DNA of 64,000 bases from Octopus vulgaris (taxonomy: Eukaryota), in the NCBI GenBank assembly GCA_951406725.2, contig OX597831.1:25978001-26042000 (forward strand), written 5' to 3'. A program made the translations under genes and the position numbers. A model generated the notes under the pieces. That model saw only the letters and a program-made list of their open reading frames with translations. It did no database searches and was not told the origin of the DNA. Below are positions 2,852-60,753 of the stretch, piece after piece (within the stretch, counting starts at the first letter, position 1; each line of letters begins with the position of its first letter).

Positions 2852-5800
2852 TTAAGATTTTTATGAAAGGACCAACCCAAGGATGTCATAAAAATGTCTG
2901 GTGATGAAAAGTTTTTAGGCTAGTCATACAGAAGATGATTCTGTAGAAGTGGTCAGGTTAAAGCTAAAAGCCAAACCTTCTTTGCTACTGCATTGCATGT
3001 ATATAATTAGTTTAAGCTGGTGAAAGACTGACAATGGCTTTTACCAAAATATGAAAGTTCAGATTTCTCATTTTAATTCTACTCTCTGGCTTAGACTTCA
3101 TGCTTGAACGATTATAAATTTAAAAAAAAAAAGTAAAACTAAATATAATTCACTGGTGCATCATCTTAATTTAAGGTTATTCAATTCCAAATGAATGGAT
3201 ATTTTAGTAGTATGCATATGTAATGTGACTTGATAGCCAGAGCTAAATATAGAAGAGGATAAGTCTAATAATAACGGTAAGTTTGCAGAAGCAAACAAAT
3301 GACAATTTAGTATGAGATAAAGTTGACTTAACTAGGTTATGGCGGCAGAAAACAAAAAAAAAATGGTCTATGCAGAAATACAACTAACAAAACAGATATA
3401 AAAAAATATTATAGGATTATTTAGGAAATGAAGAAGCATGAAGAGAAAAGGAGAAATGAGACATCAAACCATACATTTATTAAATAGTCAAAAATAAATT
3501 GCCAAAAAGATGAGAAAGTATCAAAATGTAAGCTATTGTAAGACTGTTTTCATGAATAATAAAAACAAAGATATTGTCCCAAAACAGCATTGGTAGAACT
3601 GGAAATGGAATCATGAATATTTCTAAAGAAATTACATTTGCTTGATATGACATATAATGATAGAAACAAACATAAAACAAAAATCATAATTCATAAATGT
3701 ATAAACATTAATTCAGCTAATCAACAAACATACTTAAAAGGTATTTCTACATTTAGGCTAAGAGAACCTTAATAATGAAACACATACAGAAATGCTCATG
3801 CGATTCAATTTTATTAATGTCTTTGAATATAAAAAGAAATACTTCTGAGTAATAAACTGAAATGCTATCAATTATTGAGTCATTATCTCCACAGATTTTA
3901 GAGTGCATGTTTCCAAGACATTAGTTACAACCGAGAAAATAGGAGCTGTGCACAAAGCTTAACTTGGAGTCATTGGCTCAAACCCCGTCTGTTGCAAACC
4001 ATGCTTCTTAACCTTCCAAATTCTGTACAAGCTAGTGAGATCCCTATTTTTACATATTCTTTTCTCTTTGCTACTATATTGTCGAAGAACCTAGTCTGTG
4101 ACATATTTTTACTTCAGAAACATCTAAGGTGAGCGTTTCCTTGGTATTTAGAAATGCAATGCTTACAAGCCATAAAAGGGGTTTCGTTTTCATTATGTGA
4201 CAGAGAATGACTCCCATAAGAAAATCTTTTCACGTGTAATACACCGTTACCAGGGTGATAAGAAAGAAGTGTATGAAATGGTTCAGTCTTGTAATAAGGT
4301 CACACAGTAACAACATGGCACTGTTGTTCGACTGAGATTTTTCAAATTACAGATTGCATAATAGATCACCACAAAAATAAACTACTCAGATCCATAAAGA
4401 GATAAGTTTATTACTTTCAACAGCAGAGATCAGTGCATCTAATCAAAGGTGATAGTAATGGTTTGACTACTATGAAGAGATCAGGTGTCTGGAGAGGGCT
4501 GAGTGACTAAGAATAATAAAACCATCTGCTCAATTTTTGATCACCATGTCTAAAAAGTATCATTATTCAAAAACGTGGATTAACTGCATCATCACTGGTT
4601 TCTAAAGTTAAAATATATTTACACTGGCAGAGTTAACTAGAGTTACCTGGGTATTGTTAACTAGATTTACCTGGGTATTGTATCAAAAGGAAATAAGACA
4701 GCAATAATTTCACTGAAAATAACTGAAATAAGTAAATAAGTGTTTTTAAACAGATAATAAATTATATTTCTCAGATAAGGATTTTGTACAGATATAGCCT
4801 TGAATTACCGTGCTAAATTTTATTGAAGTAACATTATCAGTTGAAATGCTCAATCAACAACTAATCTGATAAAGCAAAACCAGTGAATTCAAACTCAATT
4901 CTAAAGATTCTTTCAGTATCAAATATACCTTTTTGGAAATTGTTGTTTTTTCAAAATGTATAACGAGTATTTTTGAGTTGGTTGTTTATTTATATTTTCA
5001 CAAACTAAATTATTAAATGAAATCTAACTTAAGATTTGCATGTTCATAGTATTACTACTGAAATAACTATTGTTGATTATACTAAAACTTATCGATACTT
5101 TCGTTTGACCAATATAAGCTGCGTGTTGTTACTCATATTAAAACCAAGTCCATTTGAAGTTTACAAGGAAACCATTTATTTATATAACTTTTTGTATTTG
5201 GTTTGCAAGATTCTTTATGTGAATCCAAGACACAACGACATTTGTTTCTATATAAATATTACAATGATTGCAATAGTTGCTTGCTGGAGACTGTATCACT
5301 GATTACCAGAAGTGAGTTATGTGTGTATGTTGGATAATAATTAGACAGTGACATCTTCATCTAGGGAGAGAGGTAAGAATTAAGAATACCCTCTGTCAGT
5401 GCTTGGAGAAGTGAGAATATTTCTTTAGTATACATTTGTATACTATGGAAAGTTCATGGCTTTAAGGGTATTGAGAAAGTCCTGGTTGGAGGTCAAAGCT
5501 TCTCAGTTCTCTTACAGGGCTTAGAAAAGCTGAAGAACTGCTGTAATAAAGAATCCAGGAGAAATAACCTGAGGTCAAGCATTTGACCAAGAACCCTGTG
5601 TTTGTCTCTCAACCTCTGCTGCACACATTGAGCTTATTGAGTACATTGCATGCATCTCATCACTCTGTCCATGAGAGTTTGACATTCACTTCAATTTAAG
5701 ACCATCTTTTGGCAGGAAACCATAGAATTTTCTATAGATCATACAATTGTAGCTGAAATACTATTGGTCAGAATTCAGGGCACCTCATGTAACGTGGCCT

Positions 5801-14656: not shown

Positions 14657-15557
14657 CACACACACACACATACATAGAGCAAACTGCATGCATATGCATA
14701 AATGCATATTGAATTTCTATGAAACAGTCATATCTCTGGTGATTTTTGACATGGGTAAAGAAGGTCTATTTTCAAAGTAAACATATCATGAAAATGTTTC
14801 CAGTAGATTTTTTTTTTTAATAACATCCATAGTATCGCTGGTGCTTAGCCATTGTGGCTAAGGCTATGATGGCTCTTGTAAACTGAACAATGAAAAAAAA
14901 CAAAACAAAAAACAAAAGAGATAGAGTCCCTTTAATCTAACACATTACTGTATACTTTGTTGATATTCAAATGCTGTTGTAAGAGAATTTAGACAGTGAA
15001 TAAAGGCAATAATTATTCTTGTTTTGTGGTTTGGATCAGCACTGATTGTTCAGATTCCCTCACAGATGTTGCTAATGAAACTCTTTGAACACGAAATTTC
15101 AATTAGTTTCTTGGCTGTAGGAATTCCATTTACGTTAGCTGCTTGACAAAGGAACTGGAACACATATTCATCATGTCCAAGACACTAATGAGGATTTAGG
15201 GAAGATTTCAGATTTAACATTCTCGTTGACTTTTAATAATTGACATTGCAGGAATTGATGATGTGGCTGCTGTTATTGTTAGTCTTCTATGTCTACTGTT
15301 TGCTGTATGTGTATGAAGGCATTTACAGACTGATCATAAATATGCAGGCAGGATACACATATACAGATGCATGCACATACATATATACATATGCATACAC
15401 ACACATATATACACATACATACACATGCAAACATACACACATACATACATACATACGTACATGCATGCATGTATAGGCACACACACACACACTGACCCAC
15501 ACACATGCGCACAAACAAACAAAAAGGGAACGCAGTGTAAATAACGGACAGTCACGA

Positions 15558-15594
15558 CTATTGAAAAGGTTGCAAGACGCAACGAAAATTTTAG
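15558..15594 (+). ncRNA. degenerate minimal hammerhead, HHR-MTxP family
   Basis: CUA-UUGAAAA-G-GUUGC-AAGAC-GCAAC-GAAAA-UUU-UAG; followed by ATG at 15665. Confidence 0.45.
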
Positions 15595-15664
15595 GAAAAT
15601 AAAAATAAGAAATAAGTGGAAATTTTACCAGTGAGAGTGTTACATTATAAGGCACTAAAAGAGA

Positions 15665-15751
15665 ATGACTCTCCCCAGACACAACAGAATATGCTTCATC
15701 ACACAAACTCATATAAAGAATCTTGCAAACCAAATCCAAAGACTAATCGTT
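15665..15751 (+). mobile_element. truncated ORF start of a Penelope-like element
   Basis: MTLPRHNRICFITQTHIKNLANQIQRLI, homologous to MTIPKYNNICFNTRLHIKNLAQQIFKR (ATG 24703, minus); cut by an S3 insertion. Confidence 0.6.
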
Positions 15752-17140
15752 TCATCATCATCATCATCATCATCATCATTTAACGTCCGCTTTCCATGCT
15801 AGCATGGCTTGGACGGTTCAACTGGGGTCTGGGGAGCCCGAAAGCTGCACCAGTCCAGTCAGATCTGGCAGTGTTTCTACAGCTGGATGCCCTTCCTAAC
15901 GCCAACCACTCCGAGAGTGTAGTGGGTGATTTTATGTGCCACCGACACAGGTGCCAGACGAGGCTGGCAAACGGCCATGCTCGGATGGTGTTTTTTATGT
16001 GCCACCGACACAGGTGCCAGACGAGGCTGGCAGACGGCCACGCTCGGATGGTGTTTTTATGTGCCACCGACACAGGTGCCAGATGAGGCTGGCAAACGGC
16101 CACGATCGGATGGTGTTTGTTACGTGCCCACAGCACGGAGGCCAGTCGATGCGGTACTGGCTACAGCCACGTTCGGATGGTTTTCTTGTGTGCCACGTGC
16201 CACCGGCACTGGTACCACAAAGATACAAATTCCATTGATGTTCATCTATTTTGATTTGTTTTGATTTGATTTTCACTTGCCTCAACAGGTCTTCACAAGT
16301 GTCACAAGAAGGAAGGTATGCACAGGTGGACTGACTACGTCCCAGGTAGGGGCCACAGGTTATGGCCTGACTAGTCTTGCTGGGTCTTCGGATGGTGTTT
16401 TTATGTGCCACCGACACAGGTGCCAGATGAGGCTGGCGAACGGCCACGATCGGATGGTGTTTGTTACGTGCCCACAGTACGGAGGCCAGTCGGTGCGGTA
16501 CTGGCTACGGCCACGTTCGGATGGTTTTCTTGTGTGCCACCGGCACTGGTACCACAAAGATACAATTCCATTAATGTTCATCTATTTTGATTTGTTTTGA
16601 CTTGATTTGATTTTCTTTATCTTTTCTTTTATCTTTTACTTGTTTCAGTCATTTGACTGCGGCCATGCTGGAGCACCGCCTTTAGTCGAGCAAATCGACC
16701 CCGGGACTTATTCTTTGTAAGCCCAGTACTTATTCTATCGGTCTCTTTTGCCAAACCGCTAAGTGACGGGGACGAAAACACACCAGCATCGGTTGTCAAG
16801 CAATGCTAGGGGGACAAACACACACATATATATATATATATATTATATATACGTATATACGACAGACTTCTTTCAGTTTCCGTCTACCAAATTCACTCAC
16901 AAGGCATTGGTCGGCCTTTGATTTGTTTTGATTTCATTTTGAATTTGATTTTCATTTTTTCATTTTCACTTGCCTCAACAGGCCTTCACAAGTATCACAA
17001 GGAGGAAGGTATGCACAGGTGGACTGACTACGTCCCAGGTAGGGGCCATGGGATATGGCCTGACTAGTCTTGCCGGGTCTTCAGATGGTGTTTTTATGTG
17101 CCACCGACACAGGTGCTAGATGAGGCTGGCGAACGGCAAC
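15752..17140 (-). mobile_element. SINE-like family S3 with expanded minisatellite/higher-order repeat, interrupted by an S1 fragment (~16620-16917)
   Basis: Repeated unit ggatggtgtttttatgtgccaccgacacaggtgccagatgaggctggc; block cacttgcctcaacagg... at 16275 and 16967. Confidence 0.85.
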
Positions 17141-17316
17141 AAATATAAGTGGAATGAAAACGGCTTCAATACTTTAAGAAATTCTCATGGAAATGAAAAT
17201 AAATATTAGTTTCACATTTCAGCACAAGGCCAGCAATTGTGAAGACGGGGCTAAGTCAATTACACTAACCCCAAAGTTCAAATGGTACTTAATTTATTGG
17301 CACCACCACCACCATA

Positions 17317-17639
17317 GGAGCACTCCATCGCGACGACAAGGGTCCCAGCTGATACGATCAATGGAACAGCTTGCTCGTGAAATTAACGTGTAAGTGGCTG
17401 AGCACTTCACAAACACATGTACCCTTAACGTAGGTCTCGGGAAGATTCAGCAGGACACAGTGTGTGACAAGGCTGGCCCTTTGAAATACAGGTACTTCTC
17501 ATTTTTGCCAGCTGAGTGGACTGGAGCAATGTGAAATAAAGTGTCATGCTCAAGGACACAATGCGCCACCAGGAATTGAACTCACGACCTTACGATCATG
17601 AGACAAATGCCCCTAACCACTAAGCCATGTGCCTTCACA
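17317..17639 (-). mobile_element. tRNA-derived SINE (H3 head + Ta tail) nested in an S4 fragment
   Basis: Head gtgaaggcacatggcttagtggttagg; tail gtcgtcgcgatggagtgctcc. Confidence 0.8.
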
Positions 17640-17749
17640 TACAGTTGGAAGAAATGCTACTAAGCATTTTTTTGATATGGCAACGATTCTACCAGCTCAG
17701 CACCTTAAAAAGAAAATGAAAATAGATGTTGGAATATTAAAACTGTGTC

Positions 17750-17952
17750 TTGTTCATCGGTGAAAAGTCTCTTTCAACCATTCAGGAACTTCAGGACTTC
17801 TAAGTTAGGATCTGTGTCCTGTTTTCAAAGATTAAATTATGCTACAACTTATACTGTAAAATTAAGAAATTGTGTTTCAGAATATGTTTTGCAAGATTTT
17901 TGATGTGAAATCATGTGATGAAACAAATATTGTAATATTTGGGTATCCTTAT
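17750..17952 (-). pseudogene. decayed ORF of the HHR-MTxP (Penelope-like) family
   Basis: IRIPKYYNICFIT*FHIKNLAKHILKHNFLILQYKL*HNLIFENRTQILT; the first stop lies where the 24703 copy has CGA. Confidence 0.6.
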
Positions 17953-18012
17953 CTGTGCATGTGTTAATACGTAAATGAATGAAAAAAAAAGCTATGTAAA
18001 GGGTATGGATGG

Positions 18013-18332
18013 TGGAGACGCAATGGCCCAGTGGTTAGAGCAGCAGACTCGCAGTCGGAGGATTGCAGTTTCGATTCCCAGACCGGTTGTTATGTGTGTT
18101 TATTGAGCAAAAACACCTAAAGCTCCATGAGGCTCCAGCAGTGGGTAGTGGCGACCCCTGTTCTACTCTTTCGCCCTAATTTTCTCTCACTCTCTCTTCT
18201 TGTTTCTTGGGTAACACTGTGATGGACTGGCGTCCCATCCAGCTGGAGGGAACACATACGCCACAGAAACCAGGAAACTGGGCCGATGAGCCTGGCTAGG
18301 CTTGAAAAGGGTGCATAAATAAAAATAAAAAT
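18013..18332 (+). mobile_element. tRNA(Arg)-like SINE S2 (H2 head + Tb tail)
   Basis: Head ggagacgcaatggcccagtggttagagcagcagactcgc; 13-bp TSD aaag(g/a)gtatggat at 17998 and 18333. Confidence 0.85.
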
Positions 18333-18462
18333 AAAGAGTATGGATACAAACACTGTAGTAAGCAAACCCATACACACACACAGATGCAGATAAGGATACA
18401 CATCATAGAAAGACAGAATGGACTAAACAGAATAGGATGATACAGGTGAGATGGAAGAATCA

Positions 18463-18495
18463 CTGAAGAGGTCACAGATGTGTGACAAAAGACTT
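18463..18495 (+). ncRNA. hammerhead motif, HHR-MTxP family (GAAA decayed to AAAA)
   Basis: CUGAAGA-G-GUCACA-GAUG-UGUGAC-AAAA-GACUU; same stem II as 25672-25716; ATG TCC ATC TCA AAA TAT (MSISKY) at 18583. Confidence 0.55.
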
Positions 18496-18700
18496 CCAGA
18501 CGATGGACATAAGATAAAATAAGAACAATAATAAACAAGTGATAAATAAATACAAAGTGCGTGCGTTTATTTGGCAAGAAAAATGTCCATCTCAAAATAT
18601 GTAATAAAAAAATTCATATATATACGCATGTGTGTGTTTGTGTGCATTCAAAGTTAGCAGATAATTTGTTAACAGGTCAGACAGTGTCGCTACTTATATA

Positions 18701-19118
18701 CTCTTGCTCTTTTACTCTTTTACTTGTTTCAGTCATTTGACTGTGGCCATGATGGAGCACTGCCTTTAGTTGAGCAAATCGACCCCAGGGCTTATTCTTT
18801 GTAAGCCTAGTACTTATTCTATTGGTCTCTTTTGCCAAACCACTAGGTTATGGGGACGTAAACATACCAGCATCGGTTGTCAAGCAATGTTGGGTGTCAA
18901 ACATAGACGCACATACATACACACACGTACATATACATATATATATGCATATATACGACGGGCTTCTTTCAGTTTCCGTCTACCAAATCCACTCACAAGG
19001 CTTTGGTCGGCCCAAAGCTATAGTAGAAGACACTTGCCCAAGGTGCCATGCAGTGGGACTGAACCCGGAACCATGTGGTTGGCAAGCAAGCTATTTACCA
19101 CACAGCCACTCCTATGCC
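18701..19118 (-). mobile_element. SINE family S1
   Basis: Full-length homology to 9034-9471. Confidence 0.9.
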
Positions 19119-19438
19119 TATGTCATAACTTTTGTAGAAAGTGAGAGCAAATGTAAGTAAACAAACATATACGTATGTTTGTAACACATACACATGGCCA
19201 CCCACTCACACACAGGGGTAATTTTTCTGTTCACATCTACCAAATTCACTTGCTTAGTGTACTGCTCGGTGGGATTGAAACTAGGGCCATCAGAAAGCAA
19301 AATTCTTAACCACACAGCAATGCCTATACACAATTATTCTAGAATTTATATCAATAGATTTATTTGAATCAGCATATTTGTAAAATTGAGTGAAAAGTAT
19401 TTTGTTCAACTAACACATTCCTGTATACTTTATTCATA

Positions 19439-19503
<65 letters not shown>

Positions 19504-21399
19504 TTGTGTGTGAGAGAGAGAGAAAATATTATGAGAAAGCAACGTTGCAGAAAATACGTTAGTAGAAAACTGTAAAAATGAAATCTCAGCATATATAAGT
19601 TGTTATTCTGACATAATAGTGACAACTTGCAGAAAAAGATAATTAAAGAATGGCAATTTTTGTAAAAGTAAAAGTAAGTTTTCAGTGCCATCAGAATCTT
19701 TTGAAGTTTGAAGCTGGAATTGGTCTTGAAATTACTTAACATTTTGCAAGAAATCCAGAATTATTTCAGATGTCACTACAAAATGAGTTAGTTGACAAAT
19801 TAATCTGTGAGATGAATTGGTGTTAAAATTAATATGAATTTCAACATGGGAGTAGAAATATTACGAAGTAGTGTCTTTAAATTTAATACAAACTCAAAAT
19901 CAAACATGACACAACATGGAAGAAGTATAGATGTAAAGCATATACTACAAGAATACATATGACAAAATAATTGCCAACAATAGATCCAGGTGATGCATCA
20001 TTGCTGTAAAGTATGCACATTAAATGATGGCTAATGTTGGTGGTTTCTAGTTTTGCATTTTTGCAAACACTCTTTTTGCTTGTACAACTAGGTTACATTT
20101 TATTGTAAACCAGTCATGAATGCAAGAAAGAATACTGGAGTAAGATAACTGCTGCTTCCCATTAAAAAAAGTTTTGAAAAATATGGATGGTTTGTATTTG
20201 CAAAACCCTTCCATTTCTACTGAAAAAGATAAAAGCAGTGTTTTTCAAAATTGCCATGTTAATGCTTGTTCGTGTTAAAAACTGTGCTGTTCTGAATTTT
20301 CGATACAAGTGTACTTGAAAATATTCAAAGCTATTTAAATGCATGTATGAATAGCTGGGAAACAATGGCTATAAATTATTTCATTTATGAAATAGCCAGC
20401 AAAAGTGAGAATTGCTTTCTAAAAACTCTATGCCTGGCTTGTTTCAAGATAAATAACTCTCAGGTCAATATGATTGGACATGATAAGCTGATTACAATCT
20501 GAAATTCATTCAAGCACATAATTTTCTTCTGTATTGTGAAATTCATTTTCAAGTTTTCAAATTAAACCAAATTACAAGAAGAAAAAAAAAAACACAGAAA
20601 AATGATAAAACATAATACTTATTGACTGGAGTATTTATGCATAACTTTTAAATTAATTCAATATGGCATCATTATACCCTGATGAATAGATTAGATAGAT
20701 TTTCAATAACAAAACCTGATTGACTTTAGCTTTTACAACCACTGAAGCTGTTATAATAGTTGCTGGGAACATACAGTATCACTGAGTATGCTGAACCGTA
20801 TTCTGAACCCATTATTGTGAAGAATAGTTCTGTACACTGGTCTTTTATAGTAGCACTAATGGTGGAAGTACTACATGTATTCTATATCACCAGTACTACA
20901 ATCAGCTCTGCCACTATCACCATTTCTGTTTACACTTGAACATATTTTAGTTGTGTAGCGTATATCTTTGCAGATATGTGGTCGAAAAAGACTGATAACA
21001 AACAATATATATTATTCCAAAGTTTAATTGAAACATTCGCTTATTGTATAAATTTTGTGGACAGAGACATAATTGTTACATCGTTGTTTCCTTTTCATTA
21101 TAAATGAGCTTTCATTATGCCTAATTAACAAAAATCTTTGTTACTTCAGTTCTTATCTATGCTAACTAGCATCTTTTATTTTTTTTTTTAATTTTTAATT
21201 CATTTTACACCATATTTAGTGAATAATAACACTGTTCATTAGAGGTTTCCAATGGGTTAATCACTGGTCCACTGCATTTCGGATGATAAGAGGCAAGAAT
21301 CGTCTTTCCAATTTGGGCAGCAGAAATAAAACACAGGATAACGTTTTATTCAAAAGCAATTGGTTTTTCACTTTTGTTGCTGATTGATCAGTGAAACAA

Positions 21400-21430
<31 letters not shown>

Positions 21431-21604
21431 CATATATATGTATTCCAAGAAAGTTAGGGGTCGTGAATTCAACCAACTAAGGGATAATATCTATCCAATA
21501 TACTGCTGGTAGAATACCCAATTGTTAATGCACAAGTGTTTTTATTGCATTTCTTTTTATTAAACATAGCCAGTCTGGGAACTTTTTGATACTTCCTCAT
21601 ACTT

Positions 21605-22078
21605 TTTTTGTTTATTGCCCACAAGGGGCTAAACATAGAGAGGACAAAGAAGGACGGACAAAAGGATTAAGTCAATTACATCGATCCCAGTGCATAACTG
21701 GTACTTAATTTATCGCCCCCAAAATGATGAAAGGTAAAGTCGACCTTGGTGGAATTTAAACTCAGAACGTAACGACAGACAAAATACCGCTAAGCACTTC
21801 GTCCGGTGTGCTAACGTTTCTGCCAGCTTGCTGCCTTAAACGTTTCTTATTTTTTTATTGCCCACAAGGGGCTAAACATAGAGAAGACAAACAAGGACAG
21901 ACAAAGTGATTAAGTCGATTACATCGACCCCAGTGCATAACTGGTACTTAATTTATCGACCCCGAAAGGATGAAAGTCAAAGTCGACCACGGTGGAATTT
22001 GAACTCAGGACGTAACAGCAGATGAAATACTGCTAAGCATTTCACCCGGCGTGCTAACGTTTCTGCCAGCTCACCACT
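21605..22078 (-). mobile_element. two tandem copies of tRNA-derived SINE S4
   Basis: Head gagctggcagaaacgttagcac..gagttcaaattcc (A/B boxes); tail gccccttgtgggcaataaa; units ~21605-21838 and ~21845-22078. Confidence 0.85.
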
Positions 22079-22218
22079 GATACTTCCTCATGCTAGGGTT
22101 AATTTGATGCTTCACTGCAACATGGCTACTAAAGTGAAGCACCTATCATAAACTAGGGTCGCTTGAATTTACTACACTCTTCCCTAACAATTTAGTAGCC
22201 CAGTGCCAAAATAAAGTA

Positions 22219-22560
22219 TCATCATCATCATCGTTTAATGTCCGTTTTCCATGCTAGCATGGGTTGGACGGTTCGACCGGGGTCTGGGAAGCCAGGAGGC
22301 TGCGCCAGCCTCCAGTCTGATCTGGCAGTGTTTCTACAGCTGGAAACCCTTCCTAACACCAACCACTCCGTGAGTGTAGTGGGTGCTTTTTACGTACCAC
22401 CGGCACAGGGGGCAGAGGAAGCTGGCAAACAGGCCACAATTGGTTGGTGCTTTTTACATGTCACCGACATGGATACCAGTCAGGCAGCGCTGGCATCAGC
22501 GATGGTGCTTTTTATATGCCATCGGCACGGGTATCATAACTACAATTTTCATTTGATTTT
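22219..22560 (-). mobile_element. SINE-like family S3
   Basis: (CAT)n tail plus conserved body. Confidence 0.8.
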
Positions 22561-23171
22561 TATAATTTCTTGTGAAATTCCCACTCTCTTTTTCTAATGT
22601 AAAGCAATTAACTTCTCTTCAGTAATATATTTCTTAGCCAAAACTTCATTTACATTATGCACTGACTTCAGATTATGCAACACACAGACATAATTGTATT
22701 TAATTATTTTTTTCTATGCTTACAACAACATTCATTAATTGCTTTGTTTCAAGACATCTAAATACAACTCTGCATTGTTATTTACATTCTTATCTTCTAC
22801 TTAATACATATTAAACCTAATGAATTAATATATTGTTGATTTTAATATTCAGAGGTTAATTAGTATACTCACTCACTTTTCAGACATCAGTCATCCTTGT
22901 TCCACCTTTATGGGCCATTCTATTAATATGCCAGGGAAAAGATGCTATATTTTATAAAACAATTAAGCTATTTCTACTATGTCTATGTCTTTGCTTCTAT
23001 CAAATATTTCACATATGTTAAATCTGATCCATTAGCATTCAGTATCAACAATGGAATTAGATTGATTCATCGGTATTTGTAGAATGTCACAAGGCAGTAA
23101 GTAAATGATTAGAAAAATAAATCATTATCTTTATACAATAATGGTAAGGATATGGAAATATATGATAAATA

Positions 23172-23423
23172 ACAAATGCGCCCTTTTAAAGCCTAGCCAG
23201 GCTCATAAGCTCAGTTTCCCGGTTTCTATGGCATATGTGTTCCCCAGCTGGATGGGACGCCAGTCTATCGCAGCGTTACTCATTTTTGCCTGCTGAGTGG
23301 ACTGGAGCAACGTGAAATGAAATGTTTTGCTCAAGAACACAATACGTTGCCCGGTCCAGGAATCGAAACCACAATCTTACGATCATGATGCTGACACCCT
23401 AACCACTAAGCCATGCACCTCCA
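23172..23423 (-). mobile_element. tRNA-derived SINE (H3 head + Tb tail)
   Basis: Homologous to 31573-31835. Confidence 0.8.
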
Positions 23424-23517
23424 CTATAGAAATATATAAGAAATTATAAATATTAAGTATTAATATTTATCACCAAGCAAACAGCAATCGAGAGATACAG
23501 GACGAATGTTGCTTCCC

Positions 23518-23593
23518 CTTGCTGGATCAACATCCACAGACTGGTTTCGATGTATTTGCTCATTATCAATGTAGAGTAGCTGAACCCAGCAGG
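23518..23593 (-). ncRNA. degenerate type-I hammerhead with extended stem I
   Basis: CCUGCUGGG-UUCAGC-UAC-UCUACA-UUGAUAA-(stem II)-GAAAC-CA-GUC-UGUGGA-U-GUUGA-UCCAGCAAG. Confidence 0.5.
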
Positions 23594-23663
23594 TGTCACT
23601 GTTGACTGTCTGTTTGAAGGTTTATTTATATATATTCAGTGGAACACATCCACTGATTTTCAG

Positions 23664-23939
23664 AAATAGAAATATTATTATTTCTAAATCTTTCAAAAGG
23701 AGACTATGACAAGCAGCACTGGGTATTAATATTTATTGCTAAGCTAGCCATGGCAGTCCTGAGTAATAGGATGAATGCTGCCATTAATTAGCTCCAGAGG
23801 TTATCGCCTCTAGCTAGCTATGTGACACACAAATCTGTGTCCATTGGACTGACATTTTAGCTTGGTCATAAATACTAATATCCAGTAGTGCTGCCATAGT
23901 CTCCTTTAGAGAGATTTAGAAATAATAGTATTTCTATTT
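23664..23939. repeat. foldback with ~70-bp imperfect arms around three internal hairpins
   Basis: aaatagaaatattattatttctaaatc..ggagactatg.. pairs with ..catagtctcc..gatttagaaataatagtatttctattt. Confidence 0.75.
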
Positions 23940-24506
23940 TTATAAATATTAAATCCTCATTTCTCTTTTTCACAATAATTCTATTTTTTGATCAGATTAG
24001 TCATTTTTTTTACATTTTGGAAACAATATTTTGAGAATATTATCTGTTTATATCTTCCTCTCTTCTTCTTCTATCTCTCTCTCTCTCCTTCTCTCTCTCC
24101 TTCTCTCTCTCTCCTTCTCTCTCTCTCTCTCTCCTTCTCTCTCTCACTCTCTCATATATATATAAAAGAGTAGCATAAAATATGGATTCACAGAATCATG
24201 GAGCTTCCACAGTAAACTCCCATCTGGAGTTGTCTTTCAGTTTACATAGCAATCGATTGCAATTTAGTGTAATGTAATGTGTTTCATATAACTGAAAACC
24301 TTAAAAATCTGAGAAAAGGAAGTAAATATATATGATGGGCTTCCATACAGTTTCCATCTATCAAATTCTTTCACAAGGCATTGCTTGGTGTTACTGCTCA
24401 AGTAGAAGACACATGCCCAGAGTATAACACAGTGGAACTGAACCTGAAATTACTGAGTTGCACAATTAGCTTCTTAACCCTACAGTCACGCCGATACCTC
24501 CTAGCC

Positions 24507-24557
<51 letters not shown>

Positions 24558-24588
24558 GTATGTATATGTATGTATTTGTATGTGTGTA

Positions 24589-24623
<35 letters not shown>

Positions 24624-24799
24624 CGTTTAAATATTTGTTGTGCAAGATTTTTTATGTGAAGTCGTGTGTTGAAACAGATATTGTTATATTTCGGAATGGT
24701 CATATTGCCAGTTTAGCCAATAAAAACACACGCACTATATATTTGGTGTTATTTTGCTTCAGTGATATTTATTTTTTACATTAATCTTAATCTTATTTC

Positions 24800-24844
24800 G
24801 GCCAAAGTTCTTTCGTCACACTCCTGTGACCGCATCAGTGGTCC
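24800..24844 (-). ncRNA. hammerhead-like motif (left arm copy)
   Basis: Reverse complement of 25672-25716. Confidence 0.5.
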
Positions 24845-25671
24845 TTTGTTTTCTTCTCACTTACTTGTGTCTCTCCTTACTAACCGTCAGCCATTTTGTA
24901 TTTCTATTGTATGTCTTCATTTGCGCATGCTTATATCTCTATGTGCGTCTATGTTTATTTAGTGTGTGTGTGGGGGGGATGCCTGTAATATTTGTATCTT
25001 CTGGTTATATACATTCTTGTAATTTGTATTTTGTTTTTGTTGTTGTTGCTTTTGTTCTAATTTTGTTCATGTGTTTACATCCACCCATTATTATCATTAC
25101 ATATAAAATAGAAAACTAGAATGGAGCAATAGCGCACACCGCAACATATGACAATAGTGGATCCTGCAAACATAATAAATACACAGGTAATTAAAGAAAT
25201 AGAAATGAATATCTATATATATGTATATGTGTATATATATGTATATGTATATGTGTATATATGTGTGTATATATGTATATATATATATATGTATATGTAT
25301 ATGTATGTATATATATATATATGTATATGTATATTCTTTTTTTTTTTTTTTTTTTCTCGATTAGATTTATTATTATTATTACTAATATTGTTGTTATACA
25401 TACATACAAGCATATGTAATGATAATAATGGGTGGATGTAAACACATGAACAAAATTAGAACAAAAGCAACAACAACAAAAACAAAATACAAATTACAAG
25501 AATGTATATAACCAGAAGATACAAATATTACAGGCATCCCCCCCACACACACACTAAATAAACATAGACGCACATAGAGATATAAGCATGCGCAAATGAA
25601 GACATACAATAGAAATACAAAATGGCTGACGGTTAGTAAGGAGAGACACAAGTAAGTGAGAAGAAAACAAA

Positions 25672-25716
25672 GGACCACTGATGCGGTCACAGGAGTGTGA
25701 CGAAAGAACTTTGGCC
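25672..25716 (+). ncRNA. hammerhead-like motif, variant core CUGAUGC
   Basis: GGACCA-CUGAUGC-G-GUCACA-GGAG-UGUGAC-GAAAG-AA-CUU-UGGCC. Confidence 0.5.
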
Positions 25717-25830
25717 GAAATAAGATTAAGATTAATGTAAAAAATAAATATCACTGAAGCAAAATAACACCAAATATATAGTGCGTGTGTTTTTATTGGC
25801 TAAACTGGCAATATGACCATTCCGAAATAT

Positions 25831-25892
<62 letters not shown>

Positions 25893-26362
25893 ATGTATGT
25901 ATGTATGTATCATTTCACTAATTATGTGTTTGTATGTTTTCTATTTATTTCGATATTGCATTCAGGTTTTAAAGGTTTACAAGTGTATATGTAGCCATGT
26001 ATGCATAAGTGTATATACTTTTTTGTTATACATGTTTCCATGTTTATTTGTGCATGGTTGTGTCAATAAACAAGGACATATGTATGTACGCATGTATGTA
26101 TGTATGTATGTATGTATGTATGTATGTATGTATGTATGTATGTATGTATGAATGTAAGTATGTATGTATATATGTATGTATGTATGTATGAATGTAAGTA
26201 TGTAATAATGTATATATGTATGTATGAATGTATGTATGTATGTGCTTATTGTAAATAAGAAATATAAGTCCTGTGTATGTAGAATTCTATTTGAATGTGT
26301 GTATACATGATACAGCTGTATCTGTTTGTGTATATGTATGTGTGTGTGCATGCATGTGTATG

Positions 26363-28309: not shown

Positions 28310-28898
28310 GTATTTGCTTATACAGATTCATGCACAGATACAATGCACATATGTATGTTCCTGTCTGTATATACACATTTATATGTGAGCATAGTAACTT
28401 TGATTTCTAGCCTGTACCTAAATGTTTCATGCTACCAACCTCATACTGAGACAGCTATAATTGTCAATTGGTATTTGGAAAATAAACATCCTTTAATACA
28501 AACATGACTTAGGCAAACATTATACCTAACATTTGCAGGTTTTTATAGTACGAGGTTTACTCTATAAAACCTTTAGACATGGCTTTCAAGTTCTTGTTAT
28601 GTACACACAGTTCACACATTCACAATAAAAGTGTGTATTGCACAAATCTGCAAAAAAAAAAAAAGCTAAATCATAAATCCACTTAAAATATATAAAAACA
28701 TGAATATATATTTATCCACTACACACATTTGAAAAATATCTGAAGGTTTGAGACCATGACACACTAAAGCAAAACTATATGAGAAATAATATGTGGATTC
28801 TCAGCATTCCTGGCCATATTCACTGGGAGAGTTAAATTGACCACTGCAAAACATCCATTAATTTTACAGTGTTGCTGTTACTTACAGAGGTGAATTAA

Positions 28899-29119
28899 CC
28901 CTTTCATTACCAACCCGGCTGAAACTGGCTCTGGCTCTGAGTACAAATGTCTTGTTTTCATAAGTTTTGAATTAAAATCTTCCACCAAACCTTAGTCACA
29001 ATTTATGTTCCTAACACCAGCTTAATGATAACTAGGTTATTCTATTAAATTCTTTGTTATATTTAAAATTAATTGAAAGAAACACAGAGCATCTCAACAG
29101 AAATATGGTAACAAAAGGG
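28899..29119. mobile_element. piggyBac-type MITE
   Basis: TTAA-ccctttcattac...gtaacaaaaggg-TTAA. Confidence 0.9.
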
Positions 29120-29139
29120 TTAACAAATGATTAATTTAG

Positions 29140-29360
29140 CCCTTTCAATACCAACCCGGCTGAAACTGGCTGTGGCTCTGTAATACAAATGTCTTGTTTT
29201 CATAAGTTTTGAATTAAAATCTTCCATCAAACCTTAGTCACAATTTATGTTCCTGACACTAGCTTAATGGTAACTAAGTCATTTTACTAAATTCTTTGTT
29301 ATATTTAAAGTAATTGAAAGAAACAGAGAGCATCTTAAAATAAATACAGTAATGAAAGGG
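29140..29360. mobile_element. piggyBac-type MITE
   Basis: TTAG-ccctttcaatac...gtaatgaaaggg-TTAA, 20 bp from the previous copy. Confidence 0.9.
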
Positions 29361-29570
29361 TTAAACCTTCCAACTGATAACTGTATTCTGCTAGATCAAT
29401 GGTTCTCAACCATATTTTGCCTGTGGACCCCTATGATTTTTGTTTTACGCAGGTGGACCTTCATAGCCATTTGATGTTTTAAAATATTATTATATCTTTA
29501 TAATTAGATATTTTTAGGAATTATATTAAAAAATTGTTAAAATACTTTGTGTATTGTAATGGTATAACCG

Positions 29571-32147: not shown

Positions 32148-32528
32148 GGAGGTGCAATGGCCCAGTGGTTAGGGCAGCGGACTCGCGGTCGTAGGATCGC
32201 GGTTTCGATTCCCAGACCGGGCATTGTGAGTGTTTATTGAGCGAAAACACCTAAAGCTTCACAAGGCTCCTGCAGGGGGTGTTGGTGAACCCTGCTGTAC
32301 TCTTTCACCACAACTTTCTCTCACTCTTTCTTCCTGTTTCTGTTGTACCTGTATTTCAAAGGGGCCAGCCTTGTCACACTCTGTGTCACGCTGAATCTCC
32401 TCGAGAACTACGTTAAGGGTACACGTGTCTGTGGAATGCTCAGCCACTTGCATGTTAATTTCACGAGCAAGCTGTTCCGTTGATCGTATCAGCTGGGACC
32501 CTCATCGTCGTAACCGACGGAGTGCTCC
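32148..32528 (+). mobile_element. SINE S2 (H2 head + Ta tail)
   Basis: ggaggtgcaatggcccagtggttagggcagcggactcgcggtc..tcgtcgtaaccgacggagtgc. Confidence 0.9.
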
Positions 32529-49006: not shown

Positions 49007-49393
49007 GGAGGCGCAATGGCCCAGTGGTTAGGGCAGCGGACTTGCGGTCATAGGATCGTGGTTTCGATTCCCAGACTGGGCGTTGTGAGTGTTTATTGAG
49101 CGAAAACACCTAAAAGCTCCACGACGCTCTGGCAGGGGATGGTGGTGATCCCTGCTGTACTCTTTCACCACAACTTTCTCTCACTCTTACTTCCTGTTTC
49201 TGTTGTACCTGTATTTCAAGGGGCCGGCCTTGTCACTCTCTGTGTCACGCTGAATATCCCTGAGAACTACGTTAAGGGTGCATGTGTCTGTGGAGTGCTC
49301 AGCCACTTACACGTTAATTTCACAAGCAGGCTGTTCCGTTGATTCGGATCAACTGGAACCCTCATCGTCGTAACCGACAGAGTGCTTCCATCC
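49007..49393 (+). mobile_element. SINE S2 (H2 head + Ta tail)
   Basis: 12-bp TSD atcttatttatc at 48993 and 49394. Confidence 0.9.
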
Positions 49394-50035
49394 ATCTTAT
49401 TTATCATAGAATAGATGGAGAAGAGATCATTCCTCTGATGTTTTGGAAGGACAGAACTAAAATTTCATCTCTTAATAATGTTCTTTACATATACACATTT
49501 ACATATGCAGTATTTATTTACAGATCTTGTTTTATATCAACATAGATAAAAATTACAATAATATCTATATGCAGCACATGACTAGATTCAGTGGTGTACT
49601 TGAAGATTAACTCTTTTTCTGTTGCATCTAACATTTACAAACTGTTTCTAATTCTTATAACTTAATATAGAAATTCAACTAAACACGTCAATAAGCTGGA
49701 GCATGAATACTTTATCCAGTCACCATCTTTAATCAACTTTTCACTACATTATATTCCTTTTTAATCAATCCAATTTTCTTATTGAACATTACATTATTAA
49801 TATTTTCCTAACCACTGTACTAGAAATAAACCACGTTATTTCATGGCTGTCAGTAAAATCCTTTTGTTTCCTTGCTGATTGCATCTAATATCAGTCAGTT
49901 ACATTAGTGTGGGATGATTTTTTTTAGAAATTTTATCTTGGTAAATTTTTTAAAAGGTTTCTCTTTTAGTTACAAGTAAATCTAAGGCTACCCTTATTAT
50001 CTTGTTATGGTATTACTTTTCTCTGCTAAGACATT

Positions 50036-53714: not shown

Positions 53715-53917
53715 TCTCTTCTTCTTCTTCTTCTTCTTCTTCTTCTCCTTCTCCTTCTTCTTCTCCTTCTCCTCCTCCTCATCCTCCTCCTTCTTCTTCT
53801 TCTTCTTCTCCTTCTTCTTCTCCTTCTTCTTCTTCTTCTTCTTCTCCTCCTTCTTCTTCTTCTTCTTCTTCTCCTTCTCCTCCTCCCCCTCCTCCTCCTT
53901 CTTCTTCTTCTTCTTCT

Positions 53918-53950
<33 letters not shown>

Positions 53951-54266
53951 CCTTCTTCTTCTTCTTCTTCTTCTTCTTCTTCTCCTTCCTCTTCTTCTTC
54001 TCCTTCTTCTTCCTCGCCTTCTTCTCTTCCTTCTTCTTCTCCTTCTTCTTCCTCGCCTTCTTCTCTTCCTTCTTCTTCTCCTCCTCCTCCTCCTCCTCCT
54101 TCTTCTTCTCTTCCTACCCCTCCTCCTCCTCCTCCTCCTTCTCTTCCTCCTCCTTCTCCTCCTCCTCCTCCTCCTTCTTCTTCTTTCTTCTTCTTCTTCT
54201 TCTCCTTCTCCTCCACCTTCTCCTCCTCCTCCTCCTCCTCCTCCTTCTTCTTCTTCTTCTTTCTCC
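53715..54266. repeat. ~550-bp (CTT)n/(CCT)n polypyrimidine tract
   Basis: Almost entirely C/T on the + strand. Confidence 0.95.
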
Positions 54267-54926: not shown

Positions 54927-55320
54927 AAGGTGCAATGGCACAGTGGTTAGGGCAGTGGACTCGCGATCGTAGGATCATGGTTGTAGGATCGCGGTTACGA
55001 TTCCCAGACCAGGCGTTGTGAGTGTTTATTGAGCGTAAATACCTAAAGTTCCATGAGGCTCTGGCAGGGGATGGTGGTGGACCCTACTGTAGTCTTGCAC
55101 CACAACTTTCTCTCACTCTTTCTTCCTGTTTCTGTTGTACCTGTATTTCAAAGGGCCAGCCTTGTCACACACTGTGTCATGCTGAATCTCGCCCAAGAAC
55201 TACGTTAAGGGTACACGTGTCTGTAGAGTGCTCAGTCACTTACATGTTAATTTCATGAGCAGACTGTTCCATTGATTGGATCAACTGGAACCCTCGTCGT
55301 CGTAACCGACGGAGTGCCAC
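54927..55320 (+). mobile_element. SINE S2 (H2 head + Ta tail)
   Basis: Flanking repeat atatatataggt; short duplication in the head. Confidence 0.85.
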
Positions 55321-56387: not shown

Positions 56388-56390
<3 letters not shown>

Positions 56391-56708
56391 CACATAAAAA
56401 ACACCATCCAAGCGTGACCGTTTGCCAGCCTCGTCTGGCACCTGTGTCGGTGGCACATAAAAAACACCATCCGAGCGTGGCCGTTCGCCAGCCTCATCTG
56501 GCACCTGTGTCGGTGGCACATAAAAAGCACCCACTACACTCACGGAGTGGTTGGCGTTAGGAAGGGCATCCAGCTGTAGAAACACTGCCAGATCTGACTG
56601 GCCTGGTGCAACCTTCAGGCTTCCCAGACCCCAGTTGAACTGTCCAACCCATGCTAGCATGGAAAGCGGATGTTAAACGATGATGATGATGATGATGATG
56701 ATGATGAT
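56388..56708 (+). mobile_element. SINE-like family S3
   Basis: Close reverse complement of 15752-16070; (GAT)n tail. Confidence 0.85.
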
Positions 56709-60363: not shown

Positions 60364-60753
60364 GGAGGCGCAATGGCCCAGTGGTTAGGGTAGCGGACTC
60401 GCGGTCATAGGATCGCGGTTTCAATTCCAAGACCGGGCGTTGTGAATGTTTATTGAGCGAAAACACCTAAAAGCTGCACGAGGCTCCGGCAGAGGATGGT
60501 GGTGATCCCTGCTGTACTCTTTCACCACAACTTTCTCTCACTCTTACTTCCTGTTTCTGTTGTACCTGTATTTCAAGGAACCGGCCTTGTCACTCTCTGT
60601 GTCACGCTGAATATCCCCGAGAACTACGTTAAGGGTGCACGTGTCTGTGGAGTGCTCAGCCACTTACACGTTAATTCCATGAGCAGGCTGTTCCATTGAT
60701 TCGGATCAGCCGGAACCCTCATCGTCGTAACCGACGGAGTGCTTCCATCCATC
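60364..60753 (+). mobile_element. SINE S2 (H2 head + Ta tail)
   Basis: 10-bp TSD catacagaaa at 60354 and 60754. Confidence 0.9.

Follow-up and report, generated by a model that had tools for sequence, protein, structure and literature searches.

Why does a motif resembling the hammerhead ribozyme stand, at several places within one stretch of the Octopus vulgaris genome, shortly upstream of a related peptide start? The stretch, referred to here as the window, is 64,000 nucleotides of contig OX597831.1 (assembly GCA_951406725.2, positions 25,978,001 to 26,042,000). An earlier note on its sequence had taken these loci for the 5' ends of a probably uncatalogued lineage of Penelope-like elements (PLEs), or of retrozyme-like derivatives, in which a conserved micro-ORF (open reading frame) follows the ribozyme. 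Our analysis makes it very probable that the loci are instead 5'-truncated 3' ends of endonuclease (EN)-bearing PLEs from sister octopus families, likely inserted into (TA)n by target-primed reverse transcription and carrying a hammerhead that was likely once catalytic. The feature itself, a hammerhead followed by a "micro-ORF", is ordinary PLE anatomy and as such is known; what is new are family-wide G3-C8 and A9C hammerhead cores, and an insertion in the reverse transcriptase (RT) of the size of the telomerase insertion in fingers domain (IFD).

A full-length element behind the window copies

The orientation of the loci is given by a copy of the young family A at 25107..25838 on the forward strand, the right arm of an inverted insertion. 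This arm opens with the last 14 codons of a GIY-YIG ORF (25107-25148) and continues through the 3' untranslated region (UTR) and pseudo-long terminal repeat (pLTR) to a hammerhead and an ATG at 25813; it matches the 3' end of a full-length copy, L085, at 97.3% identity. Because it opens in this way the window copies are 3' ends and not 5' ends, and the supposed micro-ORF is really the N-terminus (codons 1-27) of a 1,309-amino acid (aa) ORF. The peptides do translate where they had been placed (15665+, 24703-, 25813+ for 8 codons only, 18583+ and 17952-), and hammerhead-like motifs are present at 15558-15594, 18463-18495 and 24844-24800 and also at 25672-25716. By the earlier note's own coordinates the gap from motif to ATG is 71-97 nt, so that the close spacing holds at slightly under the 80-110 nt that had been claimed.

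A search of the 2.8-Gb genome with the peptide gave 22,360 first-look candidates, while a piece of the RT gave 1,162 and the N-terminal domain 286. At locus L044 the element runs on, upstream of the hammerhead, into sequence that codes for GIY-YIG and RT, and a genome search with this RT identified copies with frames of 1,310-1,312 codons. Extending the matches, as the earlier note had proposed, therefore leads to a 1,309-aa ORF containing both RT and GIY-YIG. The ORF is uninterrupted in 10 of the 17 stretches fetched, with the start MTIPKYNNICFNTRLHIKNLAQQIFKR-TNVSH (TGN-MTIPKY); these ten family A ORFs differ by a mean of 0.36%, and each ends approximately 530 nt upstream of a hammerhead, after which the first ORF codons are read again. 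Nine tandems have a repeat unit of 4,546-4,598 nt (~4.6 kb), in the order hammerhead, ATG, 1,309-aa ORF, 3' UTR, hammerhead and the first ORF codons anew.

The ORF is laid out as a telomerase-like RT, a Cys linker and a GIY-YIG at the C-terminus. In a structure model of the RT-EN region (118-sequence alignment, pLDDT 93) the best structural match to the RT is telomerase RT (7trd, Z 14.3, root-mean-square deviation (rmsd) 3.8, 373 aligned) and that to the EN is the I-TevI GIY-YIG (Z 10.1, rmsd 2.2, 88 aligned). The Pfam GIY-YIG profile is over cut-off in family C, and a sequence search of the PDB gave one weak RT match. With this ORF and the motif in the pLTR, the proposal that these are PLEs with minimal type-I hammerhead motifs is borne out, and the remaining features of EN-bearing PLEs are found as well, namely partial tandems of the pLTR, inverted truncated copies and a tail at one end. 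Some PLEs retain an intron; no GT..AG skip was seen at the 15 listed of 16 joints in contigs of four presumed-RNA runs.

The two longest open frames among the peptide matches are not the master ORF, that of L041 being read-through of (TA)n and that of L042 an in-frame junction with another PLE. At the latter (L042:4842-6719, at ~99.754 Mb of G000:C1) a family A tail and (TA)n share a reading frame with a different type of PLE, 5'-truncated, which has a long Cys linker and short RT3-RT4 spacing and is Neptune-like by eye; the joint frame of 626 codons probably represents two insertions in one microsatellite. The family A ORF contains an Asn/Ser-rich low-complexity insert of ~270 residues (L085:4272-8198, residues ~230-495), and family C is without it. 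A 98%-identical piece of the element RT occurs in P0101, an isoform predicted in O. vulgaris and named "dynein regulatory complex subunit 6-like", which suggests an exonised element or a mis-annotation. Three short family A copies spaced by ~2.25 kb (L046, G000:C3 at ~166.37 Mb) and a decayed array at L112 (G000:C6 at ~91.62 Mb), in which N-terminal pieces of the ORF follow each other at ~0.4-0.5 kb, are possibly local tandem duplications. A metagenome scan gave two short loci.

An RT that by its motifs fits no named clade

The spacing between motifs RT3 and RT4 is 133 aa in families A and C and 131-140 aa in all 77 homologues that could be parsed (43 of 120 were unparsed), and the RT has ~70 extra residues at the position of the telomerase IFD. 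Read by eye from Fig. S1 of PMC8557442, the same spacing is ~62 aa in Neptune, 63 in Penelope, 86 in a Naiad and 120 in human TERT. The IFD is described there as limited to Naiad/Chlamys and sporadic Coprina, and a short Cys-rich insert at the IFD place is known from two rotifer families (PMC3846280).

The linker that joins RT to EN, CTDNYCTVC...C with Nematis-like spacing, agrees with the CX2-5CxxC linker of Neptune/Nematis, a group defined also by having no IFD-sized RT3-RT4 insertion, which is present here. Penelope/Poseidon are without a Cys linker between RT and EN, while the octopus element has one; the EN is C-terminal and not N-terminal as in Naiad/Chlamys; and a length of 4.6 kb, two Cys inside the GIY-YIG plus two His, a DKSG motif and the long insert separate it from the Hydra clade. 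Nor is it made up of short non-coding tandems with a hammerhead in each, as a non-LTR retrozyme would be. Judged by its motifs, the RT fits no named clade, and we found no paper naming a C-terminal-EN PLE clade with such an insert, as judged from listings. The view that such inserts are confined to Naiad/Chlamys would be weakened by one of IFD size in a PLE with a C-terminal EN.

Three families and selection on the protein

The peptide at 15665 represents a sister family, B, of which it is the N-terminus; it runs on into an ORF in L117, L118, L122 and L147. A third family, C, was found in the genome through the N-terminal domain. A 23-row tree, into which 18 of the 120 homologues were taken, unites A, B and C in a single clade (100/100), within which A and B are sisters. 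Nonsynonymous divergence (dN) between A and B is 0.30, as compared to a synonymous divergence (dS) of 2.8, over 387 codons, and between A and C it is 0.36 with saturated dS over 800 codons; at the N-terminus the signal between A and C is weaker (0.59 vs 0.78). Alignments of the Asn-rich region and the non-matching downstream ORF of L118, which belongs to another element, were set aside in this comparison. The peptide had been suggested to be under selection, and over its 26-27 codons selection between A and B is indeed purifying (dN 0.20-0.28 vs dS 0.89-1.40). It is conserved because it is the N-terminus of the enzyme, and is probably kept as an RNA start site too.

Whether the lineage is uncatalogued at the level of families is doubtful, because a 2026 annotation of O. 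vulgaris (PMC13282606) has 190 Penelope-like consensus sequences, 6.83% of the genome and 31 recently active families. Families A-C may well be catalogued already.

Hammerhead cores and their variants

The family A motif at 24800..24844 on the reverse strand has the form of a minimal type-I hammerhead with a C3-G8 core, an extra G and A9 changed to C at 24832. Its stem II (GUCACA/UGUGAC) and stem I (CCA/UGG) both appear in the predicted fold, the cut site is predicted to lie after 24805, and a mirror copy with the same A9C core is found in the right arm at 25672..25716 (+). The family B motif at 15558..15594 (+) has a U3-A8 core (UUGAAAA) with stem II GUUGC/GCAAC, a palindromic AAUU stem III and stem I CUA/UAG. 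The hammerhead at 18463-18495 has G12 changed to A and is predicted to be dead. None of the window motifs has a canonical core, the variants being those at 15561 (U3-A8), at the 24838/25678 pair (A9C) and at 18487 (G12A). A strict CUGANGA...GAAA scan of the window gave 0 matches vs 0.55 expected by chance, and an Rfam scan gave no hammerhead among 72 matches at E<=1. Since both Rfam and the standard CUGANGA descriptor miss every window copy, hammerheads in such genomes are likely undercounted.

To count the motifs in the genome we used exact patterns in which positions 3, 7 and 8 were free, as was position 9 in family A. Family A gave 3,917 matches in this way, family B 3,637 and family C 5,254, with 0 for each reversed control. 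By eye, C3-G8 is found in 96 and C9 in 91 of the first 100 family A matches listed, U3-A8 in 88 of the first 100 listed for family B and G3-C8 in 95 of the first 100 listed for family C. Counted directly, family A has 3,324 exact matches with C9 vs 622 with A9. C9 also outweighs A9 by contig depth in runs carrying two other organism labels, so that it is not private to the O. vulgaris genome. A minor family B set with C3-G8 comprises 14 matches, two of them from another family, and a search for A3-U8 gave 11 (control 0): six are C-type, three are diverged and two are B-type and nearly identical to each other. A3-U8 as a further natural pair in these families is suggestive only. The minimal type-I architecture is present, with a canonical core only in the older A copies (622) and the minor B set (14); in B and C the 3-8 pair is kept by compensation, young A departs from the core at A9 and the 18463 copy at G12. 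Diverged hammerhead-bearing families with related stem II and with C3-G8, A3-U8 or A3/C8 cores were also observed (L098, L102, L184, L202-L204).

The proposed linkage of motif and peptide holds across the genome, with an ORF start after the motif in 17/20 A, 24/27 B and 18/19 C loci, as compared to 7, 0 and 0 of 2,000 random window stretches. Covariation in stem II was likewise confirmed, as the families differ by two-sided changes with pairing kept. Across ten hand-picked motifs pairing is kept at positions 3-8 and at five places in stem II in 60/60 cells, three of the pairs show two-sided changes, and stem I covaries by eye (CCA/UGG, CUA/UAG, UUUGUCA/UGACAAA). As read from these alignments, the hammerhead fold and its 3-8 core pair (C-G, U-A, G-C and rarely A-U) have been selected between families, which makes it likely that the hammerhead was catalytic.

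A9 pairs with G12 and matters for catalysis. The A9C change in the young and intact family is thus predicted to impair cleavage, and the core of this youngest family would cleave poorly or not at all, from which it would follow that cleavage is probably not needed for jumping. Ribozyme mutants of an anole PLE still insert (PMC11167929), and the role of PLE hammerheads is regarded as an open question (PMC8557442). Two ideas on the core were rejected: that C9 locks G12 in a Watson-Crick pair, for which the predicted probability is just 0.08, and that ribozyme dimers pair two templates, which is unsupported, the predicted gain being small. U3-A8 is known as a natural variant, including in Schistosoma Cercyon (PMC4209133; PMC3088659), and G3-C8 as an engineered rescue (PMC9901934; PMC8495972). 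A natural G3-C8 or A9C family was not found in the literature searched, which was largely open-access, and supplementary figures and older PLE papers may hold cases; the part of PMC6155905 covered contains nothing on hammerhead variants. One genome offers a comparison set of C3-G8, U3-A8 and G3-C8 cores, together with assayable A9 and C9 versions of one family that has ten intact, near-identical ORFs.

Ends and two-armed insertions

The left arm of the family A insertion (24623..25104, reverse strand) lies head-to-head with the right arm and comprises pLTR, hammerhead and an ATG at 24703, with a long end at +82, after 27 codons, that bears a tail of ~56 nt. The right arm has a short end, ~8 codons past its ATG at ORF nt +26. 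The two arms are complementary at 100% over 427 nt, and the whole is bordered by a (TA)n-type microsatellite on the left (24509..24622) and by (TA)n on the right (25839..25910), the likely target.

The same two end points recur in the genome. Family A copies in the 17 ORF-selected stretches end either at +23 to +26 (15 short) or at +78 to +85 (11 long), and these ends nearly always run into (TA)n. Inverted family A units with both outer ends visible have one long and one short end in 11/11 cases, and only one end is visible in three further units. In 27 peptide-selected loci, a set biased to one long end, a partner arm is present in 16 and every partner is short, and 10/11 family C pairs are clearly long and short. 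Between the two arms of an insertion the mean difference per ~400 nt is 0.47 substitutions (17 comparisons, 13 loci) vs 3.63 between loci (922 comparisons), and the arms have private variants in common. As the difference between arms is far below that between loci, the arms of one insertion share a source.

There is precedent for this anatomy in a PLE whose pLTR holds the first 12 aa with a tail extending to 22 (PMC3846280), and in vitro work on the anole PLE places the tail between two RT starts that are internal, with both strands cut and extended (PMC11167929). By analogy with the latter, read-through RNA from a partial tandem would be bound near the ORF start, both target strands would be nicked and reverse transcription would start internally at two sites, one for each DNA end. 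Head-to-head arms from one source could then arise in one event, and early stopping would leave the pLTR with 8 or 27 codons. The common source of the arms, and the strict rule of one long and one short end, limit how inverted PLE insertions can form.

Further copies and repeats in the window

The family B copy (15377..15746, forward strand) is a long-ended 3' end with its ORF start at 15665 (MTLPRHNR...), 83% identical to the 3' end of an ORF-bearing copy, L129, and 93% identical to L168. An old and diverged A-like 3' end with a short end and ATG at 18583 lies at 18368..18606 (+) and aligns to the pLTR of family A with 61% identity in 258 columns; it carries the G12A hammerhead. At 17874..17946 (-) there is an A-type ORF-start/tail fragment with an in-frame stop, 82% identical to the family A ORF start, and no hammerhead motif was found when looked for upstream of this 17952 copy. 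The copies at 17952- and 18583+ were considered as two arms of one insertion and rejected, since their ORF starts are too unlike. A further tail fragment (HIKNLANQIQK) lies at 5177..5223 (-), outside the span covered by the earlier note, and no family C copy was found in the window.

Several other repeats share the window. Two-copy tandems with 242-243-nt units of other dispersed repeats are found at 21602-22071 and 28895-29364. Tandem units of 63 nt within another dispersed repeat lie at 15930-16128 and 56388-56531, and this repeat comes right after the family B copy, past (TCA)n. A dispersed repeat of ~390 nt, resembling a short interspersed element (SINE) by eye and present also in locus L129, has copies at 18014-18207, 17319-17495, 32148-32526, 49007-49395, 54928-55317 and 60364-60752. 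A (TCT)n array of ~181 copies occupies 53717-54261.

Weighing the explanations

Several observations weigh against reading the loci as truncated PLE 3' ends with a once-catalytic hammerhead. The reading rests on sequence and predicted models, in which cleavage is predicted and the mechanism is taken by analogy from the anole PLE. The entire family A ORF matched no Pfam profile and its pieces only RVT_1 and GIY-YIG, both below threshold, and the contigs of the four presumed-RNA runs, which cover 26-30 of 30 bins, are uninformative on expression, ends and cleavage. Mapping of family B ends is noisy, with long and short ends in 7/10 multi-end loci, and the ~56-nt tail compares with a published 30-40 bp. 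The covariation set was hand-picked and reflects only two or three independent events, and further pair types show no excess over shuffles (471/500). Stems I and III are short in A and B (3 bp and 1-2 bp), the predicted gains from dimers are small (1.8-4.4 kcal/mol), and the effect assigned to A9C draws on general core chemistry and on a scan of a different, type III hammerhead whose description names the CUGA region but not A9 (PMC9901934).

It could be that the loci are non-autonomous retrozyme-like or SINE-like elements that multiply as their own short units, given that short copies far outnumber long ones (22,360 peptide candidates vs 1,162 and 286) and that a preprint derives animal retrozymes from PLE pLTRs (bioRxiv 10.64898/2026.07.22.740005). 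We consider this highly improbable: set against a reference copy, the 5' ends scatter from <100 nt to ~1 kb and more, as expected for truncation, the window arm includes the C-terminal codons of the ORF, and retrozymes are 170-400-nt tandem repeats (PMC7229834) while the hammerhead tandems measured here are ~4.6 kb. The retrozyme-like derivatives of the earlier note thus give way to autonomous masters, which exist, and short tandem arrays are absent here. It is also unlikely, if less so, that the core differences are neutral drift in a long-dead ribozyme carried by successful masters. Few independent events are involved, A9C shows that a core change can spread and minimal PLE hammerheads cleave weakly in vitro (PMC4209133), but a Watson-Crick 3-8 pair is restored in each of the two changed families, no swap other than G3-C8 rescues activity in a full double-mutant scan (PMC9901934), and U4 G5 A6, G10.1-C11.1 and GAAA have stayed fixed while synonymous sites between A and C became saturated.

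The young family's A9C hammerhead may still cleave in vivo, acting as a dimer or aided by protein, with cleavage mattering for the template or for translation, and to this we give appreciable weight even if we doubt it. The other core letters and the stems are intact in 74/74 family A motifs from loci chosen regardless of core pattern, although this is also expected from the youth of the family alone; the ribozyme of the anole PLE requires protein for its cleavage (PMC11167929); and C9 has persisted and is dominant in the runs labelled as two other organisms. On the other side, families B and C and the older A copies retain A9, and core mutants are generally low in activity (PMC3088659, PMC9901934). 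Only tentatively would we extend the preferred reading, of truncated 3' ends of EN-bearing PLEs, to an unnamed and widespread C-terminal-EN clade with a telomerase-sized fingers insert, in whose octopus families all four Watson-Crick 3-8 pairs have been sampled, with natural G3-C8 in ~5,000 copies, the newest burst came from a family with a dead A9C ribozyme and two-armed copies are primed once per start site. If true, this would serve as a natural experiment on the function of PLE hammerheads.

Comparison with known systems

The octopus families share with canonical PLEs that have a C-terminal EN (Penelope/Poseidon, Neptune, Nematis; PMC8557442, PMC3846280) a single ORF of RT and C-terminal GIY-YIG, partial tandems of the pLTR, inverted 5'-truncated copies, a one-sided tail, first codons within the pLTR, a hammerhead, (TA)n targets, a CX2-5CxxC linker and a CCHH-type motif, and for the Asn-rich ORF insert there is precedent in rotifer PLEs. 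They differ in an RT3-RT4 distance of 131-140 aa vs ~62-63 in the Neptune and Penelope reference rows (by eye, Fig. S1), in DKSG for DKG, in the Nematis-like short linker spacing and in a tail of ~56 nt. Poseidon of Anolis carolinensis (PAc; PMC11167929) likewise has two end points in the ORF start, AT-rich targets and a pLTR hammerhead. Its starts lie at +111-118, with the start codon overlapped by the ribozyme, while the octopus ends are at +25/+82 with the motif wholly upstream, and PAc has been studied in vitro whereas the octopus elements are known here from sequence.

Like the minimal hammerheads of metazoan PLEs, those of the octopus have an extra nucleotide between 9 and 10.1 and a G10.1-C11.1 pair (PMC4209133, PMC3088659), a short stem I, a palindromic or near-absent stem III and the U3-A8 variant (PMC4209133). 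The octopus motifs differ in a family-wide G3-C8 and, in a young intact family, a family-wide A9C; in the passages of PMC4209133/PMC3088659, PMC9901934 and PMC11167929 covered, G3-C8 occurs solely as an engineered rescue. Naiad/Chlamys, with the octopus member Naiad_Ovul, have in common the insertion at the IFD position and the preference for microsatellites, and differ in an N-terminal EN, an IFD of 20-40 aa and the absence of a canonical hammerhead (PMC8557442). The Hydra clade, with octopus Hydra-1_Obim, shares the microsatellite preference and differs in being <3 kb, without IFD or CCHH, and with DKT and CxCX5C motifs (PMC8557442). Non-LTR retrozymes (PMC7229834; bioRxiv 10.64898/2026.07.22.740005) are also PLE-related and carry a type-I hammerhead; they are non-coding tandem repeats of 170-400 nt (PMC7229834), while the octopus loci are truncated copies of coding elements.

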